Positions 22,641 to 45,371 are shown, numbered from the stretch's first letter. The stretch: DNA of 64,000 nucleotides from an uncultured Candidatus Poseidoniales archaeon (GCA_964389655.1 CAYMED010000004.1:34593-98592); one strand, 5' to 3'. The notes: generated by a model not told the origin, from the letters alone. A program made the numbers and translations.

Positions 22641-25013
22641 TTATTCATCATTATTAGGACTGGAACTAGTAGTGGCCATTACGGGTTCAATTGATTCTCG
22701 GTAGATACTAGTACTTACCTTTCCAGGCAATTTAATTTCATCTGTTTGTGTAAGATTTTCAGTCCAATGTACAGTCACTGCAGCATCAGAAAATGCGTAA
22801 ATATAATTTCCCATGAAAATCGACCTTCGTATTGAGATGTCTCCACCCCACCAAGTGGATGTTAATCCATCCTTTCCAAAGTGTCCGGAATGGTTTATGT
22901 TCCCCTGAACTGCTAGATTTCCTTCACTCGCGTTGACATCTATCATCATTAATTTGCTAACATATTCATACCCGTAATTTGCGTATGTTTTCCCATTTAT
23001 TTCGACTTCATCATATGTCCACCTTGATGTGGAAATTGGAACAGCAAGTAAAGATGAAGCTTCCCAATATGTGAATGCTTTATGCTCATATGTTGCTTCA
23101 GAATTTGACCACTGCCAACCACACCACCGTATCTGCAAACAGTTTGAATCAGTATATCCTGGTGTTAAGGGCAATGCCTTGGCTAACTTTGGATCACTGA
23201 CATTTGAAATATCAAATAGGGAGATCTGGGTCGTCGACCAATCTAATCCAAGACCATCATCACCTCCTGGAAATCCTATGGTGAGCAAATGATTTCCATC
23301 AGATAGTGGATGGATATATGTGGAAACACCGGGCACTTTTAATTCGCCTAAAATCGATGGATTTTGAGGATCAGAGAGATCTATCGTCCATAGTGGGTCT
23401 GTTTGTCGAAATGTAACAATATATGCTCGATCACCCACAAACCTTGCAGACCAGATATTTTCATTTTTGGCAATTCCACCCAAATGACCAATTTCACTGA
23501 GGTATTTTTCACCCGCCCCATCAATGGCGATTTCCAAACAAATTACGTGATTTTGTATTGGTTCTGGATTTTCCAACCACCACCTCCCCCACTGGCCCGT
23601 AGTTGAAGCAACCCTCAATATTTCTTCGTGTTCAGATAGGGAAAATTGATTTAGAATCGTTCCATTTATCCTTCCCGATGCAACATATGTGGTTTGGCCC
23701 GATACCGATATATCGAATGTATGGAGATTTGTAGTCTCTTTTTCGTTCTGGTTGCCCCAGTACCACCACCACTCATTTGTTTTTTCAGATAGCACTAGTA
23801 AATCACCTGACGCGTAAATTTGTGGCCAATTTGTTCGAATGTGATCTGCAGTAAACGATAATTCTGTCTGGTTCAAATCAATTGAAAGAATGGATGTAAC
23901 TCCTCGGCTCGATGCATCTTTTGCCCCCGCAAATCCTTTGCAGTCATCATCTCCATATGATTTCACATCTATCGAACCATTGTCTGTACGCTCGTAAATA
24001 CGAGGTACCATGTCGTTAATCTCTAGTTTACTCAACGTATCTTCATTATCTAGGATTGTATAATCTATTGCGCGATTCCACATACTCTTTTTTTCATCAT
24101 CATTTGCTGACCAATATGCATCCCAGTCCGCCAATTCAACCCATGACTTCAGATAGGGAATATCGATCCACCCATGAGTAATCATCCGCACGGTGCCGTT
24201 AAATTCACGACCCGTGAGTAGATCTCCCTCAATGTATATTTCACGATTAATGATTGGATCAGACCGATTTTCAATATCAACGAGAGTCAATTTAGTGAAT
24301 GTTTCCCATCTCCAGTTTTCCTCCTCTTCCTGCAATAGCATACTTGTGCGCAATGAATCACCTTCTGAAAGTGTCCATGGATGGACCATTGAGGCCACAA
24401 CAATTCGATTTCCTGACATGAGCATTTGAGTTGGTTCTCCCTCGATGGAGATATTTGCGGAATGTTCTATGGAACCAAATTCAGGAACGCCGAGTATGAA
24501 AAGGTGCCCAGCATTTAGCACGTAGATATTGTTCCCGTCAGTTTTGATAAAATCCGCCTCATCGACGCCTGCTTCTTGGTTATTTGTCCCTGAGAAATCT
24601 TCTCCTTCTATCAAGGACTTTACCTCATTGGATGACATTCCCGGGCTCTTAGATTGGGAAGCGGTATTAGATGAAGTCGCCGCCTCGTCAGCCATTGCAA
24701 GTTCGGGAATTCCCATATCTAATATGTCATTTTGACGATGCCCATAGGCATAATAACCATTCCAATGATCTCGTTGATCTTCAAGGATTGCTCTTGCCTC
24801 ATCCCCGAAAGATTTGCGCAAATCTTCTAGAAGTGGGGCGCAACCAGCATAGGTCTGCAATTTTGGCGAAGATCGTTGGACTGTGTTATAATTTGGAAGA
24901 GGAATAACACCCCCTTCTGTCGGTTGGGAATTGCGTTCATCATTTTTTTCAAAAAAACCCAAACATCCCGGCAAAAGAAGTAAAAATACTAGAAGTGATG
25001 CAACTTTTTTCAT
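22641..25013 (-). CDS. Secreted beta-propeller domain lipoprotein (Beta_propel family), paralog 2
   Basis: Lipobox LLPGC; FSGTNNQEAGVDEADFIKTDG; NQFSLSE; IWSARFVG; VTFRQTDPL; LGELKVPGVSTYIHP; HKAF. Confidence 0.88.
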   Translation of the reverse strand: MKKVASLLVFLLLLPGCLGFFEKNDERNSQPTEGGVIPLPNYNTVQRSSPKLQTYAGCAPLLEDLRKSFGDEARAILEDQRDHWNGYYAYGHRQNDILDMGIPELAMADEAATSSNTASQSKSPGMSSNEVKSLIEGEDFSGTNNQEAGVDEADFIKTDGNNIYVLNAGHLFILGVPEFGSIEHSANISIEGEPTQMLMSGNRIVVASMVHPWTLSEGDSLRTSMLLQEEEENWRWETFTKLTLVDIENRSDPIINREIYIEGDLLTGREFNGTVRMITHGWIDIPYLKSWVELADWDAYWSANDDEKKSMWNRAIDYTILDNEDTLSKLEINDMVPRIYERTDNGSIDVKSYGDDDCKGFAGAKDASSRGVTSILSIDLNQTELSFTADHIRTNWPQIYASGDLLVLSEKTNEWWWYWGNQNEKETTNLHTFDISVSGQTTYVASGRINGTILNQFSLSEHEEILRVASTTGQWGRWWLENPEPIQNHVICLEIAIDGAGEKYLSEIGHLGGIAKNENIWSARFVGDRAYIVTFRQTDPLWTIDLSDPQNPSILGELKVPGVSTYIHPLSDGNHLLTIGFPGGDDGLGLDWSTTQISLFDISNVSDPKLAKALPLTPGYTDSNCLQIRWCGWQWSNSEATYEHKAFTYWEASSLLAVPISTSRWTYDEVEINGKTYANYGYEYVSKLMMIDVNASEGNLAVQGNINHSGHFGKDGLTSTWWGGDISIRRSIFMGNYIYAFSDAAVTVHWTENLTQTDEIKLPGKVSTSIYRESIEPVMATTSSSPNNDE

Positions 25014-27715
25014 CCTTCATCCTCTTCATTTCCATCATCGGGCTTGGGATCTGGAGCAGTTCCCCCCGAGGACTCACTTTCACCACTTTCTGAATCACCT
25101 TCCACCACATCAACGGTATTTACTCCCCCATCAGATTCCACAGGTAGCCTCCATCGATCAATTCGACCAGGCAATTCAACTTCACTTGAGAATGTCAGGT
25201 TGTTAGTCCAATGGACGGTAACCGCTGCATCGGAAAATGCGTAGATATATTCCCCCATGAAAATTGATCGCCGAATTGAGATGTCTCCATTCCAATAAGA
25301 TCCCGCACCCGAAAAATGTGCCGAATGATTTACATCTCCGTGAATTGAAAGAGATCCATTTTCAGCATCTACATCAACAAGGACTAATTTACTAATATAT
25401 TCATACCCATAGTAAGTATAGGTCCTTCCATCTACTACCACTTCATCATATGTCCATCGGTATGTGGAAAGGGGTACTGCAAGCAGCGAAGATGCTTCCC
25501 AAAACGTGAATGCTTTATGCTCATATGTTGCTTCAGAACTAGACCACGACCACCCACACGTTCTGATATTTTCACATTTCACATCAGTATATCCCGGAGT
25601 TAGGGGCAATGCAGCAGCCAATACTGGGTTGGAGACATCACTCACATCAAAAAGAGAGATCTGTGTTTTTGACCAATCAAGGCCAAGACCATCTTCCCCA
25701 CCAGGATACCCTATCGTCAAAAGATGATTTCCATCAGAAAGAGGGTGTATGTATGTGGAAACACCAGGAATTTCTAATTCACCCAATATTTTTGGATTTG
25801 TTGGATCTGCAATATCGATTGTCCATAGAGGATCCACTTGCCTAAATGTAACAAGATATGCGCGTTCTCCAACAAACCGAGCCGACCAAATCCTCTCCCC
25901 TTCGGCAATTCCATCTAGGTGTCCAATTTCAGTAAACACCCCGCCCCCAACTTGTTCTACTAATTGCAGACAAATAATGTGGTTTTCCATTGGTTCTGGT
26001 TCATCCATCCACCACCTTCCCCACTGGCCAGTGGTTGAAGCAACACGCAATACACCACCATATTCTGAGAGTGAAAATTGGTCCAAAATGGTTCCATTTA
26101 TTCTTCCAGAGCCCATATACTCTGTGTGCCCAGAAATAGAAATATCGAATGCATGAACATTTGTGGCCTCAACAAAATCAGGGTTATGCCAAAACCACCA
26201 CCAATCGTTGGCCTGTTCAGTTACGACTAACATATCATGTGATGCATATATTTGTGGCCAATTTGAGCGAATATGATCGGCTTCAAATTCAAATTGGTTT
26301 TGAGTCAGGTCAATTGAGATGATGGAAGTAATCCCCCTGCTTGTCGCATCAGCAGCAGCGGCAAAGCCATCACAATCAGAGGATGTGTAAGGATGAATGA
26401 CAATTCCCCCTTCTGATCGTTCATACATTCGTGGAACAAGGTCATTGAGTTGCACACTTTCCATGCTTGCCTCGTTCCAGTTAATCGTGGCATTGATACT
26501 TTCATTCCAAATGATTGATTGTTCTGTCTCATTTGCTGACCAATATGCATCATAATCTTCAATTTGGACCCAGGTTCTGAGATCCTGTGCATCAATCCAC
26601 CCATAAGTAACCATTCGTACAGTACCATTCACTTCCCGTCCTGTAAGGAGATAACCTTCGATGTAAACTTCATCCATTAAGGAGGGGTTTGTACGATCCG
26701 TAATGTCGACAACACTGATTTTTGTGTATGATTGCCAGCGATATCCACTATTGTCAGTAAATAGAATACTTTCTCGCAATGGATCATTGCCCTGTAAGGA
26801 CCAGATATTTACTGTTGATGCGATTACAATTTTGTTGTCAGACATCAACATTTGTTGGGGGTCACCCTCAATTGAGATATTTGAGGTATGTTCGACCTGC
26901 CCAAATTCGGGCACTGCCATGACGATCAAACGGCCCCCATTTAGCAGATATATATGGTCTCCATCAGTCTTAATAAAATCAGCTTCATCGACGCCCTCTT
27001 CTTGATTATTTGTACCTGAATAATCTTCTCCTTCTTTTCTTTCTGATCCTGGCGGGGGTGCAGAAGCTGATGCACTATCCCCCCCCATATTTGCAGAATC
27101 AGCAACGGTCACGGCGCCGTCACTCTCCATGACCATATCATCCATGTAGTAAATTCCATATCGCTGATTTCTTTGTGCTTCTAGATTTGATCTTGCCTCT
27201 GAAAGAAGACTTTCTTTAAGGTCGGATTCTAATCGATCACAAGCGTTGTAATTCGATAATTTAGGGGAAGAGCGTCCCGAGGTTGTGCGGGGGGTTGGAT
27301 TTGTATAATCAAATATGTACGGGTCTTCTGGATTTTGGTTTGGTTTTGCAATACCCCCTCCATCCAATGCGCGCTGAATTTCAGAAAGTAAGCCATCGAC
27401 ATCGACGGCGATACGCTCTAGCGTTGAAGCCGCCTCTGGTGATGTGAGATCAATAATACTCAATTCATCGCGTATAACCGCAATTTTATCCTCGAAAGAT
27501 GCTTTTTCTTTTTCATCCTCAAGATCTTTGATCAATACTTCAAAGGACGCGAGTGAATCTTTTATTGCCTCAACAGAACTATTGGTCCCCGTTGTATTAT
27601 CATCTAATTTTGTAGGGGCATTTGGCGATATTTTTTCTTCATCACCACCAATGCAGCCGGCGATTCCAGCGACCAACATCAATAATACCACAAGGGGTGC
27701 CGACCTTATCTCCAT
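25010..27715 (-). CDS. Secreted beta-propeller domain lipoprotein (Beta_propel family), paralog 1, with extra N-terminal coiled segment
   Basis: Lipobox IAGC; YSGTNNQEEGVDEADFIKTDG and the same downstream motifs as paralog 2; stop overlaps the next start (ATGA). Confidence 0.88.
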   Translation of the reverse strand: MEIRSAPLVVLLMLVAGIAGCIGGDEEKISPNAPTKLDDNTTGTNSSVEAIKDSLASFEVLIKDLEDEKEKASFEDKIAVIRDELSIIDLTSPEAASTLERIAVDVDGLLSEIQRALDGGGIAKPNQNPEDPYIFDYTNPTPRTTSGRSSPKLSNYNACDRLESDLKESLLSEARSNLEAQRNQRYGIYYMDDMVMESDGAVTVADSANMGGDSASASAPPPGSERKEGEDYSGTNNQEEGVDEADFIKTDGDHIYLLNGGRLIVMAVPEFGQVEHTSNISIEGDPQQMLMSDNKIVIASTVNIWSLQGNDPLRESILFTDNSGYRWQSYTKISVVDITDRTNPSLMDEVYIEGYLLTGREVNGTVRMVTYGWIDAQDLRTWVQIEDYDAYWSANETEQSIIWNESINATINWNEASMESVQLNDLVPRMYERSEGGIVIHPYTSSDCDGFAAAADATSRGITSIISIDLTQNQFEFEADHIRSNWPQIYASHDMLVVTEQANDWWWFWHNPDFVEATNVHAFDISISGHTEYMGSGRINGTILDQFSLSEYGGVLRVASTTGQWGRWWMDEPEPMENHIICLQLVEQVGGGVFTEIGHLDGIAEGERIWSARFVGERAYLVTFRQVDPLWTIDIADPTNPKILGELEIPGVSTYIHPLSDGNHLLTIGYPGGEDGLGLDWSKTQISLFDVSDVSNPVLAAALPLTPGYTDVKCENIRTCGWSWSSSEATYEHKAFTFWEASSLLAVPLSTYRWTYDEVVVDGRTYTYYGYEYISKLVLVDVDAENGSLSIHGDVNHSAHFSGAGSYWNGDISIRRSIFMGEYIYAFSDAAVTVHWTNNLTFSSEVELPGRIDRWRLPVESDGGVNTVDVVEGDSESGESESSGGTAPDPKPDDGNEEDEG

Positions 27716-31833: not shown

Positions 31834-32262
31834 CTATTTATGGTAGGGAGTTCCTCGACTAATTTGCCCTGCCCTGTATATTTGCTCAAGAAGCACCAAT
31901 AGTGCAAGGTCGTGTGGATAGGTCATTTTGCTTAATGACAGCCGCCTCAAGCCAGAAATATCTGCTGAGCGAAATCCATCCGGGGGCCCCACAATGAGGT
32001 GTGTAGTATCAGATAAAAGCCTCCAAGCCGCATATTGCTTTGAAAACCATTCTGAATTCCCATCATTTCCTTCTACATCGAGAACATAGATGATCCCTCC
32101 TTTAGATTTGATTTCATCAATGACTCCCCTAGAGTTTTTTCGGTCAGAGTGTGATTGAAGATGAATTCCATCTGAGGCGACACGCTTTTCGTACATTGAA
32201 ATCAAATCACCGATTTGTTTTGGGCTCGGCCGCCCGAAGTGGTGAATCAATATGCGCCCCAT
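31834..32262 (-). CDS. rlmH: 23S rRNA (pseudouridine1915-N3)-methyltransferase RlmH, SPOUT family
   Basis: [47 protein letters not shown]. Confidence 0.88.
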
Positions 32263-32673: not shown

Positions 32674-33390
32674 ATGCTCGCTCTTGACTTCCTTGCTCTT
32701 GTGGTTTCCCTCACAATTTATTGGTATGCCCGCCTTCAACCCTTTCCAGAAATAGGGAGGGGATTTGCTACGGTTCTTCTTTTTTTGACCCTTTTAAGCA
32801 TGTTTACCGCATTGGGTGGCTATCCTTTTCCAACTATTTTTCAAGCAAGTGCTTATGCATTCATCGGTGGGATTGGTGCAGCAGTTGGCGTTCAGCACCT
32901 TGCACGTACTCGGCGAGACGTACTAGTCGCCCCATTTTCCTCAATTATTTTTTCATCATCTGTGATTGCAATTTTAGCAGATCAATGGAATAGTGAAGCA
33001 AGTCTCTTGAATCATATCACTCAGTTCATTTTAGCCCTCATAGTTTGTTGTTTGAGCGTTTATCTCATATTCCGCGGCCTTCTCATTGGTGGCTTGCAAA
33101 AGGCGTGGTCTGAATCAGGCCTTCGCCAATTACGGAGAGGAATTCTCGATGGCCCAAGAGGCGCCATATCTTGTTTTGAAAAGGCCTGGGATCCAATGGA
33201 TGAATCCCTTGATGTTATGTCTCACGCGGCACTTGTCTTGATCCAAGAAGTGAAAGCAAAAGGAGATCCTACCGGCGAGCACAAAAAAAGGCTTGATGCC
33301 ATGGGTGGTTGGAAGGCGGTCGATTCGACTTGGATCGAGGCGATCCGTGCTATGTTGGATGAAACTGGTTCGAATTCAGGCCCCGCATGA
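32674..33390 (+). CDS. Hypothetical multi-pass membrane protein with C-terminal TPR-like helices
   Basis: About 5 TM segments, then GAISCFEKAW-type helical region. Confidence 0.7.
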   Translation: MLALDFLALVVSLTIYWYARLQPFPEIGRGFATVLLFLTLLSMFTALGGYPFPTIFQASAYAFIGGIGAAVGVQHLARTRRDVLVAPFSSIIFSSSVIAILADQWNSEASLLNHITQFILALIVCCLSVYLIFRGLLIGGLQKAWSESGLRQLRRGILDGPRGAISCFEKAWDPMDESLDVMSHAALVLIQEVKAKGDPTGEHKKRLDAMGGWKAVDSTWIEAIRAMLDETGSNSGPA

Positions 33391-34051: not shown

Positions 34052-34444
34052 TCATTTCATTGCCGCACGAGCATCTCTGAGAACTAATTTCGATTCTTCG
34101 TGAGTTAACCGAGCTTCAGCACTTTCCCAATCCAACCACACATGCGCATCATGCTCTCGAGAGAGAACCACATCAATTTCAGTTGTTGTCGCTAAGAACC
34201 AATGAACTTGTTTCTTTTTTAGGCGCCCGGAGTTTTTGTACGCATATTCTGAATGTGATTTGAATTCATGATCAATTATCACATTTTCGATTCCGGTTTC
34301 TTCTTTCAATTCCCTGAGTGCCGTCTCAATATGCTCTTCCCCATCTTCGATATGTCCCTTTGGCAAGTCCCAATGCCCTAATCGATGAAGCAACAGCAAG
34401 ACGCTATCACAATTTACGAGGACAATTCCACAACTTGTTTCCAC
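34052..34444 (-). CDS. NUDIX hydrolase, asymmetric Ap4A hydrolase-like
   Basis: SCGIV, GHWDLPKGHIEDGE...TALRELKEETG Nudix box, K.VHWFLA, LSREH. Confidence 0.9.
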   Translation of the reverse strand: METSCGIVLVNCDSVLLLLHRLGHWDLPKGHIEDGEEHIETALRELKEETGIENVIIDHEFKSHSEYAYKNSGRLKKKQVHWFLATTTEIDVVLSREHDAHVWLDWESAEARLTHEESKLVLRDARAAMK

Positions 34445-34512
34445 ACCCCATGCTCATATTGCCTCCTTCATCAAGCGATCGGCGAATATGTTGGGGAAAG
34501 GTGGATCAATGA

Positions 34513-35571
34513 GTGGTCCTCGGCAGGATGATGACTGCTGCCCCAGCCGCCGCCGACCCTTTGAGCGGCGTCCCCAATATTGAACGAATTGTTGCTGACT
34601 GTGATTTGGATGGACTTATGGCCACAGCGGTTCTCAAAATGGTCTATCCAAAGGCTTCCGTATATTTCGCTCATCCAGCCCGAATGCGAGAGCCCGAAAT
34701 AGAATCAATCATCAACATAAATACGGCAATTTGCGATCTTCCCTTTCACCCAAATTGTGGACTGTGGTTAGATCACCACCTTACAAATAAGCCAACGAGC
34801 GAAGAAAAAAGAGAGCATTCTTTGAAAGGGGGAAAATCGATTTGGGAGCCCTTAGACTCAGCCGCGAGAGTAGCCTATGAGTTATTTCGAACAAAATTTG
34901 ATTTATCCGCATTAGGTGAAATGATGGACATGGTTGACAAGATTGACAGTGGAAGATTAACCCCTGATGAATTTTTAGACCCTGATGCCACGACCAAACT
35001 TTCTCGCACGATCGGATTAGATGATACTGAATATGTTCTCAAAGTCCTTGATTGGTTGGTTGCTTGTACCCCCTTGGAAGAGATCATGATGGAACCCGAG
35101 GTAATTGCACGCGTGAATGCAGCAGAAGAAAGTAATCGGATGATTATTGAGTTACTTCCTTCAAAAGGGAAAATCATTGACCGTATTGGGATTGCTAGGT
35201 TAGAAGACACAGGATTGGGCACGAATGGCTTTCTCTTCACTGCATATTGGGGGGATGATGTTGATGCAGTGTGTGTAGTAAAGGGGTACTTGGGTGGGGA
35301 TTTAGATGATTCTAATAGGCCCCCTTACTCAGTCTCTTTCTACAACAATTCCTTCCTGCATGGCACAAATGGGGTTATGGACCTCACCCGCCTTGCTACA
35401 AAACTCGATGCAACTGGCGGGGGACATGCAAATGCCTGTGGGTGTCGTATCATGGCGATTGATGATTCACAAGAGGTTGTGAAACGCCCCGTTACCAAGG
35501 ACGATATCGATCGAAACATCGCTGCATGGCTGGAAGAATGGCGCCATGGCCGATCTCCATTAAAGGATTGA
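34513..35571 (+). CDS. DHH/DHHA1 family phosphoesterase (NrnB/oligoribonuclease-like)
   Basis: DCDLDG, CDLP, LDHH, SAARV, VDKIDSG, GGGHANACG. Confidence 0.87.
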   Translation: MVLGRMMTAAPAAADPLSGVPNIERIVADCDLDGLMATAVLKMVYPKASVYFAHPARMREPEIESIININTAICDLPFHPNCGLWLDHHLTNKPTSEEKREHSLKGGKSIWEPLDSAARVAYELFRTKFDLSALGEMMDMVDKIDSGRLTPDEFLDPDATTKLSRTIGLDDTEYVLKVLDWLVACTPLEEIMMEPEVIARVNAAEESNRMIIELLPSKGKIIDRIGIARLEDTGLGTNGFLFTAYWGDDVDAVCVVKGYLGGDLDDSNRPPYSVSFYNNSFLHGTNGVMDLTRLATKLDATGGGHANACGCRIMAIDDSQEVVKRPVTKDDIDRNIAAWLEEWRHGRSPLKD

Positions 35572-36027
35572 GATAAGATAAATTAGGCCAATGAATGCAT
35601 CTAATCCCGCAAGAATCAGTACCAAATCCGCCGCCCGACCATGGCGCTTCATTTCGTGTGCAAACGGTTCTTTCTTTTCTTTACTTTTTTTGACAGCTCT
35701 TCCCTTCGACCATGTGATTGCAAGTAAGAACACTCCCATACTTCCAAATGCCCCATGCGGATGCATTGGCAACATTGCTCGAAGAAGTGATTTTCCATCG
35801 ATCGATTGACGAATAATATTTGCTCCATATCCAAGTAAAACAAGCAAGATTGCACACCAGATAATTCGGTTCCCCCACCGCTCATGGGCATCCAGTGCGC
35901 TTTTCCTTTCCTCCCCTCGTAAACGCCTCCCTCTTCCCCTCCAAGCGTGCTGCCACCATAGCCATGAAAGGAAGCAAAGTGCGAGGATCGGGTGCATCAA
36001 GAGCACTGCAGTCCGAACTAGGTCCAC
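35560..36027 (-). CDS. Four-TM membrane protein with conserved His residues (DUF4079 / cytochrome b561-like)
   Basis: LMHP, AHERWG, HPHG and RHGR histidines placed at four hydrophobic helices. Confidence 0.65.
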   Translation of the reverse strand: MDLVRTAVLLMHPILALCFLSWLWWQHAWRGRGRRLRGEERKSALDAHERWGNRIIWCAILLVLLGYGANIIRQSIDGKSLLRAMLPMHPHGAFGSMGVFLLAITWSKGRAVKKSKEKKEPFAHEMKRHGRAADLVLILAGLDAFIGLIYLISIL

Positions 36028-36115
36028 GGAGATGGCGTGGTGTTCACTGATTCAACGGCTCCGATTGTGGTGCAATTGAATAGAGAGGATTGAAGAGCAA
36101 CGATCCGACGGCGAA

Positions 36116-39100
36116 TTGGGCACCATGGAACGGGATTTACTCACCTGTGTCGACCGCGCACGTGGGGCACAGGGCAATGCACCTGAGAAATTGCGCGCTG
36201 CCATGTCAGATACATCGTGGAAATTGTTAGATAATGGAGAAAGGGGTCTCATGATGTGCCTACTTCTCTCAGATGATAAAGAGAGCAAAGGGCACACAAT
36301 TCGTAGGGGTATGCGCCGAGGACCCGGCGGGAGAAATGAACGGCGCCCAGAACGAGAACGCTGGCTACTAGAAGTCGACTTGGAAGATGAAAACCTCTCT
36401 GCAGCCATGCGATGGGCTTGCTTGAAGATACGACATGAGAATGGCCTTAATTCACCAAAACATGCCGATGAGGTCTTGTCATCTCTTCGTAAGGAATGTG
36501 ACAAGGGCGTACATCCAGTATGGGCTAAAATTTCAGAATTATCCCCCGCGGTGGCAGAATTTATTGAAATGCCTGTGCTAGATGTTTCAGAATCAACCCA
36601 AGATTTTGATATCACGGGGTGGTATGCCGCATCGCGCATTGACCCAATGGATCTTACTCAATTACTTTGGTGGTTGAAAAAACCAATTCCTTATGCCCTT
36701 TCACCCGATGCACAGGTGAATTTGCGAAACTTAACGCAGGCCATTCAAACTAGAAAACGTGGAAAAAACCTTGATTTAAACCCATTCTTGCACCCATCTC
36801 TATTTTCCATTGAAGGGGAAGGGGGCCTCCTTGGCGCGATATTATCTATCTCAGCGAAACGAGATGATGCCAAAGAGCTCTTGCTTGCAGTTTCTGGAGA
36901 TGGGGTTGAAACAGCGACGGATTTGCTGACGCTAATGCAACTTCGAGATGGAATAAGTGATGGGTTTCAGGAATCTGTATCAAACAAGGAAACCGATCAC
37001 CTATCCACCGCTCTCCGCATAGCCGCGTGGAAATGCGCCCCTGAGGAAGGGTACAAAGTGAGTTTGAAAGAACTTCAAGCAGGGGAATCATTGCTTTCTG
37101 AAGACGATGCTTCAGCCCGGCGAAGAATAAGGTGGTGGATCGTGGTTGCCCTTTTACGGAAAGGGGACATTCTGAATGCGGAGAAATATTTGCCCGAGGA
37201 CGCCGATGACTTATCCAAAGCAATTGACACAGTACGTGAATTGGCTGCAAAAGGCAGCGAAGTTGGCGGGGATTGGTTACGATCCAAGTTTTGGGAAATG
37301 GATGCTCAATCCCTTCTCGCCGTGATTTCAGAACAAAGGATTGCCGAGAACTTGCGTGTCAGCGCAACAGAGGCAATCATTGAACTAGATGTGGAAAATT
37401 GGTCCCAATCATCTTCTGTGTTGATTGACGTTCTTCTTTCTTCAGTTAATATTGGTGTGTTAAGCAAACTCCTCGAACGACTTGGTCCAGAAGCAGGTAT
37501 GCTCCACCCCCATGCCGCCCTTATTTCAGCACATTTGCACCCTGCTGAGCCTGAGGGCCCTTCAGTTGAAGCAAGATCTACTGCCCGCCATACCGCAATT
37601 AAGTCATTGCGGGATGCCAATGCAAAATTAGTTCCTGATACGGTTTCCTCAATATCTAATGCCTTGTTACATCACCTGGATGGTGGTATCTCTGATGAAA
37701 AAGAAGGAGCGGGTCCTACTCAATTTGGACTTGATTTGAATGGCTACAAGGCACTGAAACAATGCCGAAGAGCCCTCGCAGAAGGGGGTGATGGTCTTGT
37801 TGCAGACCGTCGTTTAGATGTATTACGTCAATCAGTTTCGAATGCGGATTTCAATACTATTGAACGTGCATTATTCAACACACTGATTTCAACTCTAGAA
37901 ATATCTCGAGCCGCTGTTTTATTGCAACGGACACAAGATCCGCAATCAATTATTGAATCAGAATCAATTCTACAAAAAATTCTCGAAGAAGGGGATCTTA
38001 AAGGCCGAATTCTCGGCGCAATCACTCAACTCGTTGTAGAACATGGATTGGGTATTCATCAACTAATGGAATGGTATCGCGTAAATGATCCAAGGCACAG
38101 TGCTGCTGCTGCAGTGCAGGCGGGATATCATGACAAACAAGGGGATTATCGTCGGGCAGCTCGCTTATGGGTCCATGCTGCCAAAAATCAGGAAACTGAT
38201 TTGGAAAACCGCGTTCGATTTGGCAGACTTGCACTAATTGGATTGGCGCGTGGAAAACATTGGGATGATGCCTTGAATCTTCTCAATGACATTTCATCAC
38301 TTCGGTCTATGGTTACAGAAGATTTCCAACTATACCTTTCCATTAATCACTTGATGTCGAAAGGAAACGGTGACACGGCGCGAAAGAAGTTAATTGAGCA
38401 CTGTTCTACTGAAACACTTGAGGTTCGAGTCAATGAGGAGGGGGAAGAACAGAGAACTGTTCGGCGGGATGTATCGATAGAAATTCTTGAAGGACTGCTT
38501 GATTACCCATCTAGACATCGACATTTACTGCCTCCTGAGCCATTTACCGGGAGAATACGAGCAACATTACGCAGGCAACGTGAACGATTAGTTCGTACAA
38601 ACCGTGAGCGTGCACCCGCAAGACTAAGATTTCGAATGGCCTTTGAGGAGGGTGATCATGAGGCAATTGGCCCACTTGTCGAATCAGTAGCAAGAAATGA
38701 TCCATCAGCAGCACTTCGTATGATCGAGCAATGCCTTTCATCAGACCGATTTTGGGAATCATCAAAGCGACAATTAATTTCACTTGGCCGTTCTTTATTC
38801 AAGTTGCATGAGGCAAAAATACCCATACGGAAACGGAAGCATTTTCACCATCTTGACCTGAAACCCCTTGTCATTCTTGATACGAATATTCTAGTCGATG
38901 CCTTGAGGGATGAAATCGCACAAGAAGTTGGCCTAGGGCCCGACATTGTTCTTGAATTAGGGGGCCGCACTGCGTTTCGCCGCCGCCTCCTCAAGCAAAT
39001 TGAATCTAAATCAATTCTAGGTTGGATACCTCCTGTCGTGCGAGATGGTGAAATGGAAAAATGGAAGCACAAGGATGAGGCACTGGCATTGTTTGACAAC

Positions 39101-39532
39101 GTTCTTTTATCCTCTGATATTTCGGATAAAATTTCTTCAATCGCTGAAAAAACAAGAGATTCGGTCCTCAAACGGTGGTCGACTTGGCCAGCACTGGGCC
39201 ATGAGATGAATGAAGAAGCCGTTCCATTGATTGAAGACCTTCTTTGTAGCCACTATGATACATTTGTTCAGATTAACCGAATTAAAAGGAAAGAAGTTAG
39301 AACTGAATTGAGGGGGGATAAAATCTATCCAGAAACAGGGGATTTGGAAGTTATGATGGAAGCAATGTCGATCGCTGAGTCTTCCCTGTCGGGAATTCAA
39401 TCCGTTGCAGTGGCTACGATGGATTCAGATTTCATCATGATTCAGCGCGCCCTTGAAGATCGATTTGGTTTTGCCGTAATTTCCGATGCTGAAGGTCTAC
39501 AGAGATTAATCGGTGAAACCAAAAAAGCCTAA
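36116..39532 (+). CDS. Large alpha-solenoid protein with C-terminal PIN-domain nuclease
   Basis: VILDTNILV (about 38864), IPPVVRDGE, PETGDLEV and VATMDSDF supply the PIN acidic tetrad; upstream about 900 aa is helical with TPR-like segments. Confidence 0.78.
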   Translation: MGTMERDLLTCVDRARGAQGNAPEKLRAAMSDTSWKLLDNGERGLMMCLLLSDDKESKGHTIRRGMRRGPGGRNERRPERERWLLEVDLEDENLSAAMRWACLKIRHENGLNSPKHADEVLSSLRKECDKGVHPVWAKISELSPAVAEFIEMPVLDVSESTQDFDITGWYAASRIDPMDLTQLLWWLKKPIPYALSPDAQVNLRNLTQAIQTRKRGKNLDLNPFLHPSLFSIEGEGGLLGAILSISAKRDDAKELLLAVSGDGVETATDLLTLMQLRDGISDGFQESVSNKETDHLSTALRIAAWKCAPEEGYKVSLKELQAGESLLSEDDASARRRIRWWIVVALLRKGDILNAEKYLPEDADDLSKAIDTVRELAAKGSEVGGDWLRSKFWEMDAQSLLAVISEQRIAENLRVSATEAIIELDVENWSQSSSVLIDVLLSSVNIGVLSKLLERLGPEAGMLHPHAALISAHLHPAEPEGPSVEARSTARHTAIKSLRDANAKLVPDTVSSISNALLHHLDGGISDEKEGAGPTQFGLDLNGYKALKQCRRALAEGGDGLVADRRLDVLRQSVSNADFNTIERALFNTLISTLEISRAAVLLQRTQDPQSIIESESILQKILEEGDLKGRILGAITQLVVEHGLGIHQLMEWYRVNDPRHSAAAAVQAGYHDKQGDYRRAARLWVHAAKNQETDLENRVRFGRLALIGLARGKHWDDALNLLNDISSLRSMVTEDFQLYLSINHLMSKGNGDTARKKLIEHCSTETLEVRVNEEGEEQRTVRRDVSIEILEGLLDYPSRHRHLLPPEPFTGRIRATLRRQRERLVRTNRERAPARLRFRMAFEEGDHEAIGPLVESVARNDPSAALRMIEQCLSSDRFWESSKRQLISLGRSLFKLHEAKIPIRKRKHFHHLDLKPLVILDTNILVDALRDEIAQEVGLGPDIVLELGGRTAFRRRLLKQIESKSILGWIPPVVRDGEMEKWKHKDEALALFDNVLLSSDISDKISSIAEKTRDSVLKRWSTWPALGHEMNEEAVPLIEDLLCSHYDTFVQINRIKRKEVRTELRGDKIYPETGDLEVMMEAMSIAESSLSGIQSVAVATMDSDFIMIQRALEDRFGFAVISDAEGLQRLIGETKKA

Positions 39533-39599
39533 TTCCCCGTCGAATCAGGCTTTTAATTCAAACAAAAGACCTATGAGGGTCCGGTCGTGACGAACAGCA

Positions 39600-42500
39600 A
39601 TGCCTAGAGATGTTTCTCCAGTTAATCGCCGCGCGCCGCTAGTGATGCTTTTGTTTGCATTGGCAGCATTCGTGCCAGTTGCCTCCCCTGCTTCCGCAGC
39701 GGAACTTCATTATGAAGATCAAACCAAAATAGGTGTGTCATCCCACATTAAGATCGATATATATCAAGACATGGGTGATATTGATCTCCATGTATGGGTT
39801 ATATGTGAACCAACAGATGATTGTCTAGGCAACAACGCACAACTAACAATTGAGATGTCTAATCAGTCGGCCCTCCAAGATACGGTTGGCCCAAATGGAT
39901 TTTCAGGACATACAAGCCATACATTCCATATTTCTGATACAGAGACACTCTCATTCAATGTGAGTTGGTCGAATGATTCATCTCCTAATGACCAAGAAAC
40001 AGTCATCCTCTTGTTTACCCCTTCACCCTGGTTATCCTTTCACCAAGCACGTGACATGGATGGCGATGGCATAGCAAATAACCTAGATGATGATATCGAC
40101 GGCGACGGAATCGAAAACTCAGTCGATACTGACGACGACAATGACGGTATCCTCGACTGGGAGGACCTCGATCCAGAAAGCGCCTCTGTAGATCCTATAG
40201 TCGACGTTCGATTAACTGGTTCAGATTCCATCTCAAAATTTGAAATTGATTGGGATATTCATGACAGTTTCACAGGGCATTTGCTCGACGGTGGAACAAA
40301 AGACGACAACTTTTCAGTTGATTTTTCCACTTTTGGGAAGGGTGCATACCACTTATGTGCTCGTGCTTACAATATGTCTTCCTTGTTGCAACGAGACCAT
40401 ATTTCAGAGATGTGTTCGGATGTTCTCATTAACGCGCCTATAATTCATGTTGAATCATGGATGGATTCCGAAGGACTGGCATTCAGGATTCAAACCCGTG
40501 GATTTGGATCCTTTGGTAAACTTGGATGGAATTATACGATTGATGACCCAAGCGGAAGCACAGTCGCTTCGGGATCATATGGACACGTTTCTGGAGCGGA
40601 AATCAGGGATTATTCACATGGCGGCATCCATAGCGATGATAATCGCTATCCAGCAACAGAGTCCGGTGACCATACAATTTCGATAATGGTTGGGCAGCTT
40701 AATCTTAACAGTACGGATAATGGGACGTTGATTGAGTCCACAACCCATACTGCAAAGGTGCACCCTTGGTTCAAATTAGACAACACAGACCGTATTGTCA
40801 CAGATGGTATATTTAATGCGACAATCACTGCAATGGCTTTGGGTGGAAACAACGAGGATATTCGATATGATTATACGATGAGAAAAATAACACAAAATGG
40901 CAAAAACGTGGATTATTCTGACGTGACCCGCAAAGATGCAGATCTTAGTTCCTCATCAACCCTAATTTCAGAAAATGTTGATTATGATGCAGGTGAAATC
41001 TGTTTCAACATATATCCGAAGGAACAATCCAATGGGCCAGATAATTGGCACTTTGGGGATTGCAGGCGCTTTGCCAAAGACAATGAGCAAATTTTTGCAA
41101 ACACTCATTTGAATGAAAACGGGCTTCATTTCCATGCTTATACTGTAGGGTCTGAGTCTGACCACGATTCAAACACGAATTACTCGATCCGATGGTCTCT
41201 TACAAAAAATGGCAATAGTCTAGGCGAAGGGATTCGTGGCGGATGGAATGGAGCGACGCATTGTGGGGAATTTGGAGACCAATATTGTGTTGATATTACA
41301 TCAGAGACATGGTGGTCAGTCCATGGTGCAACATCGGGATCATATGAATTAGTAATTGAATTGGAGGAGTTCACCCCTGACTCTAACTACACCATTGATA
41401 TGGAAAGCATTCAGTTAACTATGGATCCCGAATTGCATTGTCAAGGGTGCCATAGATATTCTGGAAATGACAATCTCCGTCCGCTCATGTATGCCCCTGG
41501 CATTGATGAAAATGCAAGTGGGTGGGAAATAAGATGGAGATTCTATGATGTCTCGGGCGATTGGGATGAAAATAACCCCCTCTACGAAGGCACTGTCCAG
41601 AAACCCCGGCACCAATTAATATTGGATGTAGGGAATGGGAGTTACCGTCTTTGTGCAGCATTGTACAACGACCTCGGCGAGAAGGTTGATCCAAAAGATT
41701 GGGATGAACATTGTTGGCACTTCCATAAAGGTCCGCCCGTGATCAAGTATGATCATTGGATGGAAGACGAAGATCGCTTTAGACTCAACATTCATGTTCA
41801 TGAAATCGAGCATTGGAACCGTGATTATTCTCTTATGTGGTCCCTTGATTTTGATGGAGATGGGATTGCCGATGAGAATGGGACCATTTCATGGCCATCT
41901 GGGGAATGCTGTCATGAAGAGATGTTCTTTGAATTGGATGATTCAGCAGTTTCAGCAACCTTTACTGGAACACTTTTCGATTCGAATGGAAATGAAATTG
42001 CCTCACTAATTGATACAATTTATTTCCCTGCTAGGTTGTATGTTGAAGATTCGAGCCCATGGCCATCTAATGAACCTGTATCTCCAATTATTGGATATCG
42101 GGGGGGGGATGAAAATGGAATGTATCGAATTGAGTATCGCCTTGAGCCAAGGACCAACCAGGATTGCGAATGGTCGGTATGTAATGGTCAATTCGATGCG
42201 CGTTCTAAGAAAGTTGAGTTTGGCCTCCTCGATGATGGAAAATACGAATTATCCTTGTCGCTTTACTTGAATGAAAATGGTGCTTATCATCATAAAGGGC
42301 ATAAATCATTTGAGATGTATGTTGGAGAACCAACACCTGAAGTCTGGTTTGATGATGGGATGGGGGGGAAGGGCACCGCCTACATGATGGTGGAATTCCC
42401 TTATGCTCTAGTGTTAGAAGATGACTGGGAAAACGTCAAAATCCAATGGAGCCTTGATGATTCATCTTCTGGTGAATGGAATTCAACCGATGCTAAAGGC

Positions 42501-45371
42501 GACGAAAATTATACGATGACAAAAGAAGAATGTGAGATGAGCGGCGGCGAATATCACGAAAATGAGGATGGATATCAGCCACACTGCCATTTACCAGAAC
42601 ACCACGAAGAGAAGGAAATTCCAGATGGATGTGCCCTTGGGCCCGACGTACGTGATGTCTCTAATAACCGATACACCATTACTTTTGACTGTAAATTCTC
42701 AGGACTTGACCCAGGAGTACACACAATCTCAAGCACACTTGATGTTAATGGCACGATGCAGCAAATTAGCAGAGACTTCGATATTAGGGGCTGGTTTGAC
42801 ATAAACGACCAATCCCCTTACCCATACGGGCAAGATGTATATATCCCCGTCAGCGTTACTGCCAATTCTTCTTCAACTCATCTCGTTGAATGGAGAGTGT
42901 ATGAACTCAATATGAAAACAATCAATGATCTTTTGTCGGAGGAATGGCGGTGGAACCCCGACCAAGAAGGGTGGTATAACCTTAACAGAATGGGAAGTGG
43001 TGGAAATGATGCCCCAATCACCGACAGTGAATCATCATACATTGTTTATGGAAACAGTTCACAAGATCAATTCAACGTGATGCTCAATCTTCCCTCTGGA
43101 CTATATGCGGCATGTCTGTTATTAGATATTGCCAAACAAGGTGAAGATCTCGCCGGCACCGGCCACTTCAATCCCGCGTGGTCATGTAAATTGCTTCGAT
43201 TTGGAAATGAACTCGTTCATGTTACTGCCCATGCTGAAAGAGATTATGTTCATGCACAATTACTTGCAGCATGGCTTCCAGATCAAAGCGAATGGAATAT
43301 CACATGGAGCATAACAGATCCTGCAGGGACCACAAGCACGACAACACACCACTCAACAGAGTATGTCCGTGGGCCCTATAATATCCTCGATTTGGGTCAT
43401 GATTGGCACGAGCTCGAGCGTGGATTACATACGATTTCGGTTGAGATTGACAACGGTGCAGAAATGATCAAATCATCTGAAACCGTATTTGTCACTGCTC
43501 TTAGTGGCTATATTAGTCACGTAAGTGGGATGTGTGATGATGATCCGGGGATTTCCGAATGGGGACACCTGCAATGTCACACAGAAGCATCCACGAAATT
43601 GAGCATATGGTTGGATGATCTTGATTCCAACTCCTCAATCACTTATGCCGTTAAATGGGAACTTTATTCTGATGCAGGAGGATGCGGTGATCCAGGGGAT
43701 CTGCTCGATCAAGGAACATCTATTGTTGGTGACGCGCCCGTTACAACCAATACGGCGCCATCCGATACGACATCCATCAGCGAAGTAGACCTTGGCAAAC
43801 TCAGTCGTGGTCAGTATGGGATCTGTCTTACAGTGATTGATCATGAAGGATATGCAGTGGGTGGGGAGAGATTTGAGCACATCAGTATTGATTATCATGG
43901 CCCCGAAGTCGATTTACTGTTTACACAACACTGGTTTGCATCTGGCGATGATGTATCTGTGTTCATAGACTATGAGCGTCCAAAAGAAGGTTGGCCACTA
44001 ACAGGCCCCACTACTGTAAATATATCACTCATAGATCATACAGGGGCGTCAGTATCATCCCAAGAAATGGATTTCACATCCTCGTCTCTATGGGGGAATA
44101 TAATTGATTTTTCAGGAATTTCCGATGGCGTGTACACTTTCGATGTAAAGGTTAAACAAGATGGAAGAGACTTAACTGATAGTGGTGCATACCGGCTGAA
44201 CAATGCAGAGTGGGCTGGAAAAACTCATGTGGGTGGCGCATCTGATTGGACAGTAACTGCCGCAACAAATTGTGGTGCAAATCCTTGCAAGGCATACACA
44301 AATTTTGGCATTGACTTTTCCGTAACTCCCTCTGTTGGGGCAGCCTTGGGAAAAACCACCCACGTCATGTGGGGGCTCATACCGATGGATGAACGTATGG
44401 TGGGTGAGGACGACGATGAAGTCGAAGGTGGAGGGGAATGGACTTCAAGCAGTGATGGTTGGAGCGATAGTCTCGGAGGTATTCGAATTTCAGGTGGAGA
44501 ATGGCTGATATTTATCATAATGTATGAACTATCATCACCCGGTGAAATTAGCGCCAAAGGTTGGAAAATTCAACCATTCCATGTCGAAGACGATCCCGAA
44601 GGAGATCCCGATGGAGATGGTATTCTCAATAAGGATGATTCATGCCCGTTGGTGAATGGAACAACACAATACGATGGTTGCCTAGGAGATGACTTTGACA
44701 ATGATGGCGTTCTTGATTATCGTGATCGATGTGTTCGTCAATCTGGTCCAGCTGCGAATGATGGTTGCCCTGATGAAAATGATCCCGATGGGGATGGCCT
44801 CATTGGAGAGGAGGACAAATGTCCAATAGATTATGCTGAAACCACAAATGGTTGTCCAGATGGAACACCCATTGGTGAAGAATTGCCAAATACGAGCGAA
44901 AACAGTGCTCCAATCTGTGATGTGTTGATGAGTAGGGATGATGGTGATACTGCCGTATCTGCTAATAAATTGGTCAAGGCAACAAGCGGTCACTCAGAGC
45001 ACACAACATCTGTTCAAGCAGGATCTGTCACGATTGAAGCGGTTTGTGTTGATCCCGATGGTGACAATGTTGCTATCACGTTGAATCTACCCGCGACTGG
45101 GCAGAGTATGAGTTTTGAGGATTCATCATCAAAGGCAAAAATGCTGGTTGTTTTACCAGTGGGCTCACCAGACATTCTTCTTCAAATTACATGGGCCGAT
45201 GGTACATTTGCAGGTTCTGTAAATTTGACCGTACAGGTCACAGACCCACCCGTTGGAGCTGACGTTGAATCTGCAGAATCAACCGGCGGATTTGTTCCTG
45301 GCTTCCCGGTTGGTCTCGCCGCTCTTGCCTTGTTGGGTGCAGCATTCGGTGCCCGAAGAAAACAAGAGTAA
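39600..45371 (+). CDS. Large secreted surface protein with TSP3-like Ca-binding repeats, Ig-like repeats and PGF-CTERM anchor
   Basis: Signal peptide (ASA-AE); DxDGDG clusters; C-terminal VPGF + TM helix + RRK. Confidence 0.85.
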   Translation: MPRDVSPVNRRAPLVMLLFALAAFVPVASPASAAELHYEDQTKIGVSSHIKIDIYQDMGDIDLHVWVICEPTDDCLGNNAQLTIEMSNQSALQDTVGPNGFSGHTSHTFHISDTETLSFNVSWSNDSSPNDQETVILLFTPSPWLSFHQARDMDGDGIANNLDDDIDGDGIENSVDTDDDNDGILDWEDLDPESASVDPIVDVRLTGSDSISKFEIDWDIHDSFTGHLLDGGTKDDNFSVDFSTFGKGAYHLCARAYNMSSLLQRDHISEMCSDVLINAPIIHVESWMDSEGLAFRIQTRGFGSFGKLGWNYTIDDPSGSTVASGSYGHVSGAEIRDYSHGGIHSDDNRYPATESGDHTISIMVGQLNLNSTDNGTLIESTTHTAKVHPWFKLDNTDRIVTDGIFNATITAMALGGNNEDIRYDYTMRKITQNGKNVDYSDVTRKDADLSSSSTLISENVDYDAGEICFNIYPKEQSNGPDNWHFGDCRRFAKDNEQIFANTHLNENGLHFHAYTVGSESDHDSNTNYSIRWSLTKNGNSLGEGIRGGWNGATHCGEFGDQYCVDITSETWWSVHGATSGSYELVIELEEFTPDSNYTIDMESIQLTMDPELHCQGCHRYSGNDNLRPLMYAPGIDENASGWEIRWRFYDVSGDWDENNPLYEGTVQKPRHQLILDVGNGSYRLCAALYNDLGEKVDPKDWDEHCWHFHKGPPVIKYDHWMEDEDRFRLNIHVHEIEHWNRDYSLMWSLDFDGDGIADENGTISWPSGECCHEEMFFELDDSAVSATFTGTLFDSNGNEIASLIDTIYFPARLYVEDSSPWPSNEPVSPIIGYRGGDENGMYRIEYRLEPRTNQDCEWSVCNGQFDARSKKVEFGLLDDGKYELSLSLYLNENGAYHHKGHKSFEMYVGEPTPEVWFDDGMGGKGTAYMMVEFPYALVLEDDWENVKIQWSLDDSSSGEWNSTDAKGDENYTMTKEECEMSGGEYHENEDGYQPHCHLPEHHEEKEIPDGCALGPDVRDVSNNRYTITFDCKFSGLDPGVHTISSTLDVNGTMQQISRDFDIRGWFDINDQSPYPYGQDVYIPVSVTANSSSTHLVEWRVYELNMKTINDLLSEEWRWNPDQEGWYNLNRMGSGGNDAPITDSESSYIVYGNSSQDQFNVMLNLPSGLYAACLLLDIAKQGEDLAGTGHFNPAWSCKLLRFGNELVHVTAHAERDYVHAQLLAAWLPDQSEWNITWSITDPAGTTSTTTHHSTEYVRGPYNILDLGHDWHELERGLHTISVEIDNGAEMIKSSETVFVTALSGYISHVSGMCDDDPGISEWGHLQCHTEASTKLSIWLDDLDSNSSITYAVKWELYSDAGGCGDPGDLLDQGTSIVGDAPVTTNTAPSDTTSISEVDLGKLSRGQYGICLTVIDHEGYAVGGERFEHISIDYHGPEVDLLFTQHWFASGDDVSVFIDYERPKEGWPLTGPTTVNISLIDHTGASVSSQEMDFTSSSLWGNIIDFSGISDGVYTFDVKVKQDGRDLTDSGAYRLNNAEWAGKTHVGGASDWTVTAATNCGANPCKAYTNFGIDFSVTPSVGAALGKTTHVMWGLIPMDERMVGEDDDEVEGGGEWTSSSDGWSDSLGGIRISGGEWLIFIIMYELSSPGEISAKGWKIQPFHVEDDPEGDPDGDGILNKDDSCPLVNGTTQYDGCLGDDFDNDGVLDYRDRCVRQSGPAANDGCPDENDPDGDGLIGEEDKCPIDYAETTNGCPDGTPIGEELPNTSENSAPICDVLMSRDDGDTAVSANKLVKATSGHSEHTTSVQAGSVTIEAVCVDPDGDNVAITLNLPATGQSMSFEDSSSKAKMLVVLPVGSPDILLQITWADGTFAGSVNLTVQVTDPPVGADVESAESTGGFVPGFPVGLAALALLGAAFGARRKQE
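40053..40175 (+). repeat. TSP3-like DxDxDG Ca-binding repeat cluster 1 (protein-level)
   Basis: DMDGDGIANNLDDDIDGDGIENSVDTDDDNDGILDWEDLDP. Confidence 0.85.
44590..44860 (+). repeat. TSP3-like Cys-containing Ca-binding repeat cluster 2 (protein-level)
   Basis: DPDGDGILNKDDSCP, DFDNDGVLDYRDRC, DGCP, DPDGDGLIGEEDKCP, NGCP. Confidence 0.85.
45291..45371 (+). other. PGF-CTERM archaeosortase sorting signal
   Basis: FVPGF-PVGLAALALLGAAFGA-RRKQE tripartite motif at the C-terminus. Confidence 0.85.

Follow-up and report, generated by a model that had tools for sequence, protein, structure and literature searches.

Among described proteins, the closest to the one considered here are the VapC toxins, small PIN-domain nucleases of ~130 aa, and SMG6/EST1A (likewise Nmd4 and SMG5), which join a helical region to a C-terminal PIN domain and belong to nonsense-mediated decay. 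The available portion of PMC5499597 describes the VapC-like group of PIN domains as endoribonucleases and gives the positions of their acidic residues. Here we describe a gene that joins a PIN domain to a much larger N-terminal region, found in a 64,000-nt stretch of DNA from an uncultured Candidatus Poseidoniales archaeon (GCA_964389655.1 CAYMED010000004.1:34593–98592; hereafter, the window). The gene (the large gene; its product, the large protein) occupies positions 36116–39532 on the plus strand, an open reading frame (ORF) of 1,138 aa if read from TTG. An earlier note on this DNA, made from the sequence alone, had read the product as a helical-repeat protein with a PIN nuclease at its end and had proposed that it forms an RNA-decay module with nearby NUDIX and DHH genes, or that it acts in antiviral defence. 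Our analyses uphold the nuclease domain and favour a lineage-specific PIN endoribonuclease tethered to a scaffold as the probable identity of the large protein, with the NUDIX and DHH genes as independent housekeeping neighbours.

The C-terminal region of the large protein is modelled as a VapC-like PIN domain

The last ~250 residues, modelled from a 21-sequence alignment (A3; predicted local distance difference test, pLDDT, 87.5; predicted template modelling score, pTM, 0.88), have the PIN core, a Rossmann-like alpha/beta/alpha fold with a central parallel sheet (S1–S5, H1–H5). In the model, D922 and T923 follow strand 1, E979 lies in the helix after strand 2, D1076 sits at the N-terminus of a helix and D1103/D1105 (DxD) come after strand 4 (P0001 numbering throughout for these residues), a placement that matches the VapC-like pattern of four to five acidic residues supplemented by Ser/Thr; a helical insertion of ~75 residues interrupts the domain (model residues ~98–175). 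The domain corresponds to residues 885–1135 (38777–39529, plus strand), and the four PIN motifs named in the earlier note are present in it: DTN (D922), VVRDGE (E979), GD (D1076) and TMDSD (D1103/D1105), with the catalytic codons at 38879–38881 (D), 39050–39052 (E), 39341–39343 (D), 39422–39424 (D) and 39428–39430 (D), on the plus strand. No other 30-residue stretches of the large protein are as conserved as these motifs.

Conservation of the acidic site was examined in 113 near-full-length PIN domains, obtained from 80 further species loci plus library representatives. The first, third and fourth Asp are kept in all 113 of them, and the Glu and the fifth Asp in 112. A hidden Markov model (HMM) built from 113 other family members, without the window, aligned the E of 'GE' in the window protein on the conserved Glu, preceded by a one-residue insertion. 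The modelled fold and these residues together identify the last ~250 residues as a VapC-like PIN domain with a complete and practically invariant acidic site, as the earlier note had claimed for the tetrad.

Searches of Pfam, NCBIfam and PDB gave no match for the whole large protein or for its last 238–258 aa, and the Pfam PIN-clan models did not match the window protein even at E ≤ 10. Sub-threshold Pfam matches appeared among the orthologues, with PIN_12 and PIN in 6/21 each and PIN_3 in 4/21; the best, from locus L015, covered the whole 172-position profile of PIN_12 (E 1.2e-4, 23 bits, cut-off 32). The weak rows of a Foldseek comparison of the PIN model with PDB include scattered PIN proteins (VapC, SMG6, HARP), and the two best rows of the viral comparison are PIN proteins. 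With VIA-align, the closest solved structures are VapC toxins, and SMG5 and Utp23 are among the structural matches. A search for stand-alone relatives of the PIN domain gave only fragments of the same family, and HMM searches with the large protein recovered only its own family, both among the matches listed.

The proximity to VapC structures raises the question of a toxin of a toxin-antitoxin pair. The large protein has 1,135 aa from its likely start, as opposed to ~130 aa, no small same-strand ORF lies beside its gene on either side, so that the absence of an adjacent antitoxin stated in the earlier note holds, and the gene is core, vertically inherited and single-copy; moreover, Pfam PIN PF01850 has no match anywhere in the genome. 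A VapC-type toxin is in practice refuted by its size, the lack of an adjacent antitoxin ORF and the core vertical distribution, and we give it next to no credence.

Inactive PIN domains typically lose acidic residues, and here each of the five acidic positions, like the Thr, is retained in 112–113 of the 113 sequences, which makes a nuclease-dead RNA- or protein-binding scaffold, with a PIN fold kept for binding as in Utp23 or SMG5, highly improbable. It does have in its favour that SMG5 and Utp23 appear among the structural matches and that inactive PIN domains exist, as recorded in the available part of PMC5499597. The same part of that source includes FEN-type DNA nucleases in the PIN-like superfamily, and Exo1 is among the weak Foldseek rows; the domain could in that case act on DNA (flap, repair or replication intermediates) and not on RNA. 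We consider this very unlikely, with no sign of a helical arch or an H2TH element in the modelled secondary structure and the VapC-like group being, as far as that source extends, one of endoribonucleases (PMC5499597).

The N-terminal region is presumably a helical scaffold

The N-terminal ~880 residues gave no sequence match in Pfam, NCBIfam or PDB, either with the window protein or with a 24-sequence profile. The region opens with a conserved segment (residues 1–55, 36125–36289, plus strand) that shows the aligned motif xxYLxxCL and a nearly invariant C8 (24 sequences). An acidic linker then precedes an Arg/Gly-rich basic segment (residues 56–80, 36290–36364, plus strand; aligned consensus RRxGRRGGRG) with a pI of 12.0, 28% Pro+Gly and, in the 24 sequences, invariant R64 and R65, which is a candidate nucleic-acid-binding tail.

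The ~800 aa that follow (residues 81–884, 36365–38776, plus strand) are probably mostly helical, to judge from their propensity: a crude average over the multiple sequence alignment gave 64% helix and 10% strand, by a method that had a three-state accuracy (Q3) of only 0.62 in a control on the modelled PIN domain. The best match to a repeat family in Pfam was ANAPC3 (E 0.062, below the cut-off), compared with 5.9e-32 for a true tetratricopeptide repeat (TPR) protein in the same window, and segment-to-segment comparison with hhalign found no internal repeats (best probability 7.6%). Language-model look-alikes of residues 80–890 are TPR clusters (0.89–0.91), which we take as a lead only. Among 45 distinct full-length sequences, L, A, W, G and P predominate at the nearly invariant positions, and because of this the region is presumed to be a scaffold; there are also two small near-invariant polar clusters, R122/C125/G128/H130/P131 and Y794/P803/G809/R810.

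Distribution, descent and selection

Poseidoniales count among the most abundant surface-ocean archaea and, to our knowledge, have no cultured member. Loci related to that of the window were found in Candidatus Poseidoniales, Poseidoniaceae and Thalassarchaeaceae (Marine Group II), with the large protein in 37 of 41 relatives. In a sample of the phylum (Thermoplasmatota), it occurs in 32/35 genomes of the order versus 0/165 outside it. Considering only genomes of the order that are at least 90% complete, 63/69 contain the large gene, including 42/42 of family f3 and 20/26 of family f2; it is missing from two genera, g2 (0/2) and g13 (0/4), and for five of the six genomes without the gene, a PIN-only profile likewise had no match. 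Double matches are due to contig breaks, each genome having a single copy. A search among 1.84 billion representative proteins retrieved 269 matches at E ≤ 0.001; among the 150 listed, 25 are 1,000 aa or longer and the others are fragments, no length being above 1,169 aa.

A neighbour-joining tree with Kimura distances recovers the three families and all the genera. Identity of the large protein is 23–34% between families and, within the genus of the window, ~31% versus 60% for the DHH protein; this within-genus divergence is similar to that of the DUF4079-like and SPOUT neighbours, and faster than that of isocitrate dehydrogenase (ICDH). The ratio of nonsynonymous to synonymous substitution rates (dN/dS) is ~0.07–0.10 in the N-terminal part and the PIN domain alike, as estimated from the two closest pairs, with saturated dS; it was non-computable, also from dS saturation, in three more distant pairs. 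The GC content of the large gene, overall and at third codon positions (GC3), matches that of its genome. These data show that the large gene, present as a single copy, is inherited vertically and evolves under purifying selection and, among the genomes sampled, that it is specific to the order, where it is nearly universal but dispensable.

Two contigs that carry a Poseidoniales-type gene, L053 and L069, are filed as bacterial metagenome-assembled genomes (Yoonia sp. and Neomarinimicrobiota) and were probably mis-binned.

The pattern of descent bears directly on a role in antiviral defence, in which the N-terminal part would sense a viral cue and free the PIN domain to cut viral or host RNA. 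A large sensor plus a nuclease is a common layout among defence proteins, and such a role would suit the fast divergence within the genus and the dispensability in two genera; there are also weak language-model look-alikes in bacterial PIN-TPR-GreABC clusters (0.78, below the level of a lead), on which we found no paper in a full-text literature search whose scope left out ~1.7 million PubMed Central articles and most subscription-journal papers. However, PADLOC-DB 2.0 has no match at E ≤ 0.01 for the large protein, nor for the DHH and DUF4079-like proteins, and no NTPase or other sensor domain was found. Likewise, the gene is a single copy at a fixed locus, with a tree congruent with taxonomy and native composition, its dN/dS is low in the N-terminal part and the PIN domain alike, and its within-genus divergence resembles that of the DUF4079-like and SPOUT neighbours. 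Antiviral defence, as put forward in the earlier note, is accordingly a reading that we regard as improbable.

The NUDIX and DHH neighbours

Four genes of alternating strand make up the locus. The first (34052–34444, minus strand) encodes a NUDIX hydrolase of 130 aa (P0002; Pfam NUDIX 6.1e-19), followed by a DHH/DHHA1 phosphoesterase gene (34513–35571, plus strand; P0003, 352 aa from GTG), a gene for a DUF4079-like four-helix membrane protein of 155 aa (35560–36027, minus strand; P0004; Pfam DUF4079 2.5e-4, below the cut-off) and the large gene, which is divergent to the latter across a 97-nt intergenic region.

The earlier note's identification of the NUDIX protein as of the Ap4A type is borne out by its PDB relatives, which include NUDT2 (1.7e-15) and proteins from C. 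elegans (8.1e-11) and Aquifex (6.1e-10); all nine matches at E ≤ 1e-5 are dinucleoside-polyphosphate (Ap4A or Ap6A) hydrolases. Direct reading shows an intact Nudix box (Gx5Ex7REUxEExGU) in P0002, and the RELxEETGI helix is present in 17/17 orthologues. In PADLOC-DB 2.0, the NUDIX protein matches the candidate-system model PDC-S07 at 1.1e-8.

The assignment of the second neighbour as an Nrn-type DHH/DHHA1 phosphoesterase also stands. Residues 14–331 align to residues 12–321 of PggH from Vibrio cholerae (PDB 7d62, E 4.7e-14), the DxDG, DHH and GGGH motifs occur in 17/17 orthologues, and some relatives are named 'oligoribonuclease NrnB/cAMP/cGMP phosphodiesterase (DHH superfamily)' by the Joint Genome Institute (JGI). 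The start of the gene is probably at ~34531, not 34513, because the identical protein on record has 346 aa. We know of no cyclic di-GMP signalling in these archaea. PggH hydrolyses pGpG to GMP and is pGpG-specific, according to the available part of PMC8861645. The neighbour resembles PggH and NrnB-type enzymes in its full-length match and its DHH and GGGH motifs, and differs from them in being archaeal and in lacking a Pfam DHH or DHHA1 match. Separately, the DHH orthologue of genome G002 (L114, G002:C18:12970–13974) is read through one in-frame TAG, and could be a pseudogene, a sequencing error or a split gene.

Linkage of the NUDIX, DHH and large genes

Synteny was examined in 20 loci from other genomes of the order, with ~8 kb of flank each, and in 80 further species loci, which are best matches and not a random sample. 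In the first set, 14 loci have the DHH gene within 1.5 kb of the large gene, three have it at 3.4–4.7 kb and in three it falls beyond the locus; in the second, where 60 loci extend far enough upstream, it is within 1.5 kb in 31 of them. The NUDIX gene adjoins the DHH gene in 16/16 loci of the first set that hold both. The DUF4079-like gene adjoins the large gene in 17/20 and 57/60 loci, and the ICDH gene lies within 1.5 kb of its 3′ end in 10/20 loci, including 8/8 of family f3, and in 43 of the 70 further loci with enough downstream DNA. ICDH is, therefore, as faithful a neighbour of the large gene as DHH, so that the linkage on which the earlier note relied exists in many relatives but is no tighter than that of an unrelated gene; the conserved block also holds, besides ICDH, an unrelated cobalamin adenosyltransferase gene.

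The block does break. Unrelated genes separate the DHH and large genes in 3/20 loci; genome G009 has an MFS transporter and an MMPL protein between the DHH and DUF4079-like genes, G002 has a beta-oxidation cluster in place of the large gene, and G018 has a methyltransferase between ICDH and DHH. Breaks occur at convergent junctions, which is what passive collinearity would lead one to expect. Genomes G002, G018 and G034 keep NUDIX and DHH without the large gene, and a fourth genome that lacks it, G016, has a DHH fragment at a contig end; reciprocally, G021 (94% complete) has the large gene, and DHH was not found in it with the query used. With the queries used, the DHH gene is restricted to the order (17/17 versus 0/103) and so is the DUF4079-like gene (15/17 versus 0/103), because of which the shared restriction of DHH and the large gene is uninformative on partnership.

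The earlier note had combined these genes into a decay module in which the NUDIX enzyme removes Np4N-type 5′ caps, the PIN domain cuts the RNA body and the DHH enzyme clears nanoRNAs. The enzyme types fit, given a NUDIX protein similar to Ap4A hydrolases and a DHH protein similar to the pGpG-specific PggH and NrnB-like; removal of Np4 caps is described for Nudix enzymes such as RppH in the available part of PMC8833179, and the proximity of DHH to the large gene and their common restriction to the order are also in line with it. On the other hand, strands alternate, so the NUDIX, DHH and large genes cannot share a transcript; a membrane gene on the opposite strand stands between the last two, and the NUDIX and large genes have separate promoter-like boxes. 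The three genes are not contiguous on one strand, and their linkage is no stronger than that with an unrelated neighbour. Additionally, the collinear block includes ICDH and cobalamin adenosyltransferase, there are unrelated insertions and single losses in both directions, the genome already has RNase PH subunits of the exosome and three beta-CASP nucleases, and the DUF4079-like gene, which has no RNA link, is just as order-restricted. The pathway has in its favour a thematic fit and a neighbourhood no tighter than that of ICDH, and we judge it unlikely. The NUDIX and DHH genes look like separate nucleotide-housekeeping genes rather than parts of one machine, which lie near the large gene because this stretch of the chromosome is collinear across the order; in slowly rearranging, streamlined genomes, a conserved neighbourhood is by itself poor evidence of shared function.

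Probable role of the large protein

Putting these results together, the large protein is probably a lineage-specific, scaffold-tethered PIN endoribonuclease, with NUDIX and DHH as independent housekeeping genes. By analogy with canonical PIN domains of the VapC group, the C-terminal domain would be an active, Mg2+/Mn2+-dependent endonuclease that cuts single-stranded RNA. The ~880-residue N-terminal part would be non-enzymatic, probably a mostly helical scaffold with a conserved Arg/Gly-rich tail, and would choose an RNA or protein partner and thereby set the target. The role would be a task in RNA processing or turnover that is peculiar to the order, and non-essential because two genera have lost the gene.

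Several points weigh against this interpretation. No Pfam PIN model reaches its gathering score with the window protein or with any orthologue, and Foldseek against PDB, part of the check suggested in the earlier note, gave nothing at E ≤ 0.001. The terms 'scaffold' and 'helical' derive from propensity and from the kind of residues conserved, and the N-terminal part might hold a second catalytic site at its two near-invariant polar clusters. The absence from two genera argues against an essential housekeeping role. Lastly, the DHH, DUF4079-like and large genes are all order-restricted, and a lineage-specific partnership among them is conceivable.

As regards other nucleases of the genome, three alternative assignments were rejected. 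The large protein is not a replacement for Nob1, since the genome has its own Nob1-type PIN_6 gene, with whose product the PIN profile aligned at a probability of 0.13% in hhalign. A protein-only RNase P of the PRORP/HARP kind was discarded given the presence of an RNase P RNA (207 bits), and a stand-in for missing exosome or beta-CASP machinery was discarded given three RNase PH and three Beta-Casp matches in the genome, in which RNB had no match.

Start codon and transcription signals of the large gene

The large ORF described in the earlier note exists, although alignment of orthologues indicates that its start is likely ATG 36125, and not the TTG, yielding a product of 1,135 aa. Promoter-like boxes precede it (36076–36095, plus strand, by reading of the sequence), with TTGAAT (36076–36081) at −49 and TTGAAG (36090–36095) at −35 from this ATG. 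The pattern G[AG]TG..TTGA[AT][AG] occurs 44–53 nt before the start of the large gene in 13/20 orthologous loci (29 nt in one), compared with 0.18 per kb per strand in the background. Genome-wide, TTGA[AT][AG] occurs 96 times at −40 to −21 of 810 long ORFs, compared with 15–29 times per 10-nt bin farther upstream, and TTGAAG is enriched 2.65-fold at −40 to −10 of long ORFs. This resembles a general promoter element, which in Poseidoniales may play the part of the TATA box. A TTGATG box precedes the NUDIX gene by ~30 nt, on the minus strand. With a promoter-like box of its own, the large gene therefore appears to be a separate transcription unit. At its other end, a consensus scan detected, as a pattern match only, a terminator-like palindromic hairpin of 13 bp (39523–39554, no strand assigned) that overlaps the stop codon.

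Two peculiarities were seen in relatives. In family f2 (loci L018, L021, L022, L027, L028 and L033), a conserved palindrome, CCTTGC-nnn-GCAAGG, lies directly 5′ of the promoter-like box. In a search of five genomes for palindrome plus box with up to two mismatches, all the exact matches are upstream of the large gene, as is a two-mismatch match in G022; the remaining three two-mismatch rows are one that overlaps the G010 site on the opposite strand and two unrelated sites in G026. The palindrome may be a locus-specific operator or an RNA hairpin. In orthologues from genus g3 (L015:7893–7925, L030:7758–7790), the conserved N-terminus starts three codons past an in-frame stop and there is no ATG, GTG or TTG before codon 21, only ATT or CTG being on offer, which suggests that this genus uses a non-canonical start codon for the large protein.

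Other features of the window

Upstream of the NUDIX gene there are genes for cobalamin adenosyltransferase, a 238-aa ORF (32674–33390, plus strand), which is kept in the collinear block across the order and has no Pfam or PDB match, and a SPOUT/RlmH-like methyltransferase (31834–32262, minus strand; 1.6e-24), in agreement with the rlmH gene placed a little upstream in the earlier note. Downstream of the large gene come a 1,923-aa surface-type protein, a YbaK-like editing domain, a glutamate-synthase-like gene and ICDH. The first of these (39600–45371, plus strand) has a signal-like N-terminus and a hydrophobic C-terminal tail, and it separates the large gene from ICDH, which adjoin each other in many other genomes; like another giant ORF of 2,758 aa (54405–62681, plus strand), it has almost no family matches. 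A 943-aa ORF (3023–5854, minus strand) matches nothing in Pfam at E ≤ 1e-5 and no sequence in PDB, and 22641–27715 (minus strand) holds two tandem Beta_propel (PF09826) paralogues of 790 and 901 aa. The remaining window is ordinary chromosome, with genes such as those for enolase, pyruvate kinase and malic enzyme.

Comparison with known systems

The resemblance of the large protein to SMG6/EST1A is one of layout. The structural match of its PIN domain to SMG6/EST1A is weaker than that to VapC, Pfam gave no EST1 or 14-3-3-like match to the N-terminal part, whether in the window protein or in 24 family members, and nothing points to common descent. It is a speculative and doubtful idea that the large protein is a Marine Group II analogue of SMG6, with the PIN domain recruited, by way of the N-terminal part and its Arg/Gly-rich tail, to ribosomes or RNA-protein complexes for RNA surveillance, perhaps between NUDIX and DHH; the NUDIX enzyme may then remove cap-like 5′ ends upstream and the DHH enzyme may clear nanoRNAs downstream. 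If true, this would be an independently evolved, order-specific route of RNA quality control in abundant archaea of the surface ocean.

At the sequence level, the best lead for the PIN domain is Pfam PIN_12 (PF16289, formerly DUF4935), which the available part of PMC5499597 classes as VapC-like, with bacterial proteins of ~350 aa and of no known function. The family of the large protein differs from it in scoring below the gathering value of 32 bits, with the window protein itself lacking a match, and in its partner regions.

The large protein has Asp, Thr, Glu, Asp and Asp/Asp where VapC-like PIN domains have them and, by prediction, the same chemistry. Unlike VapC, its PIN domain is joined to an unrelated region of ~880 aa, contains the ~75-aa helical insertion and has no antitoxin, and it belongs to a core chromosomal gene with a sequence below every Pfam PIN threshold. 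The full-text literature search already described found no paper, within the same scope, that mentions the large protein. It represents an undescribed variant of a known enzyme class, the PIN nucleases, which widens the architectures of prokaryotic PIN proteins beyond small toxins and offers a concrete, testable candidate for lineage-specific RNA metabolism.

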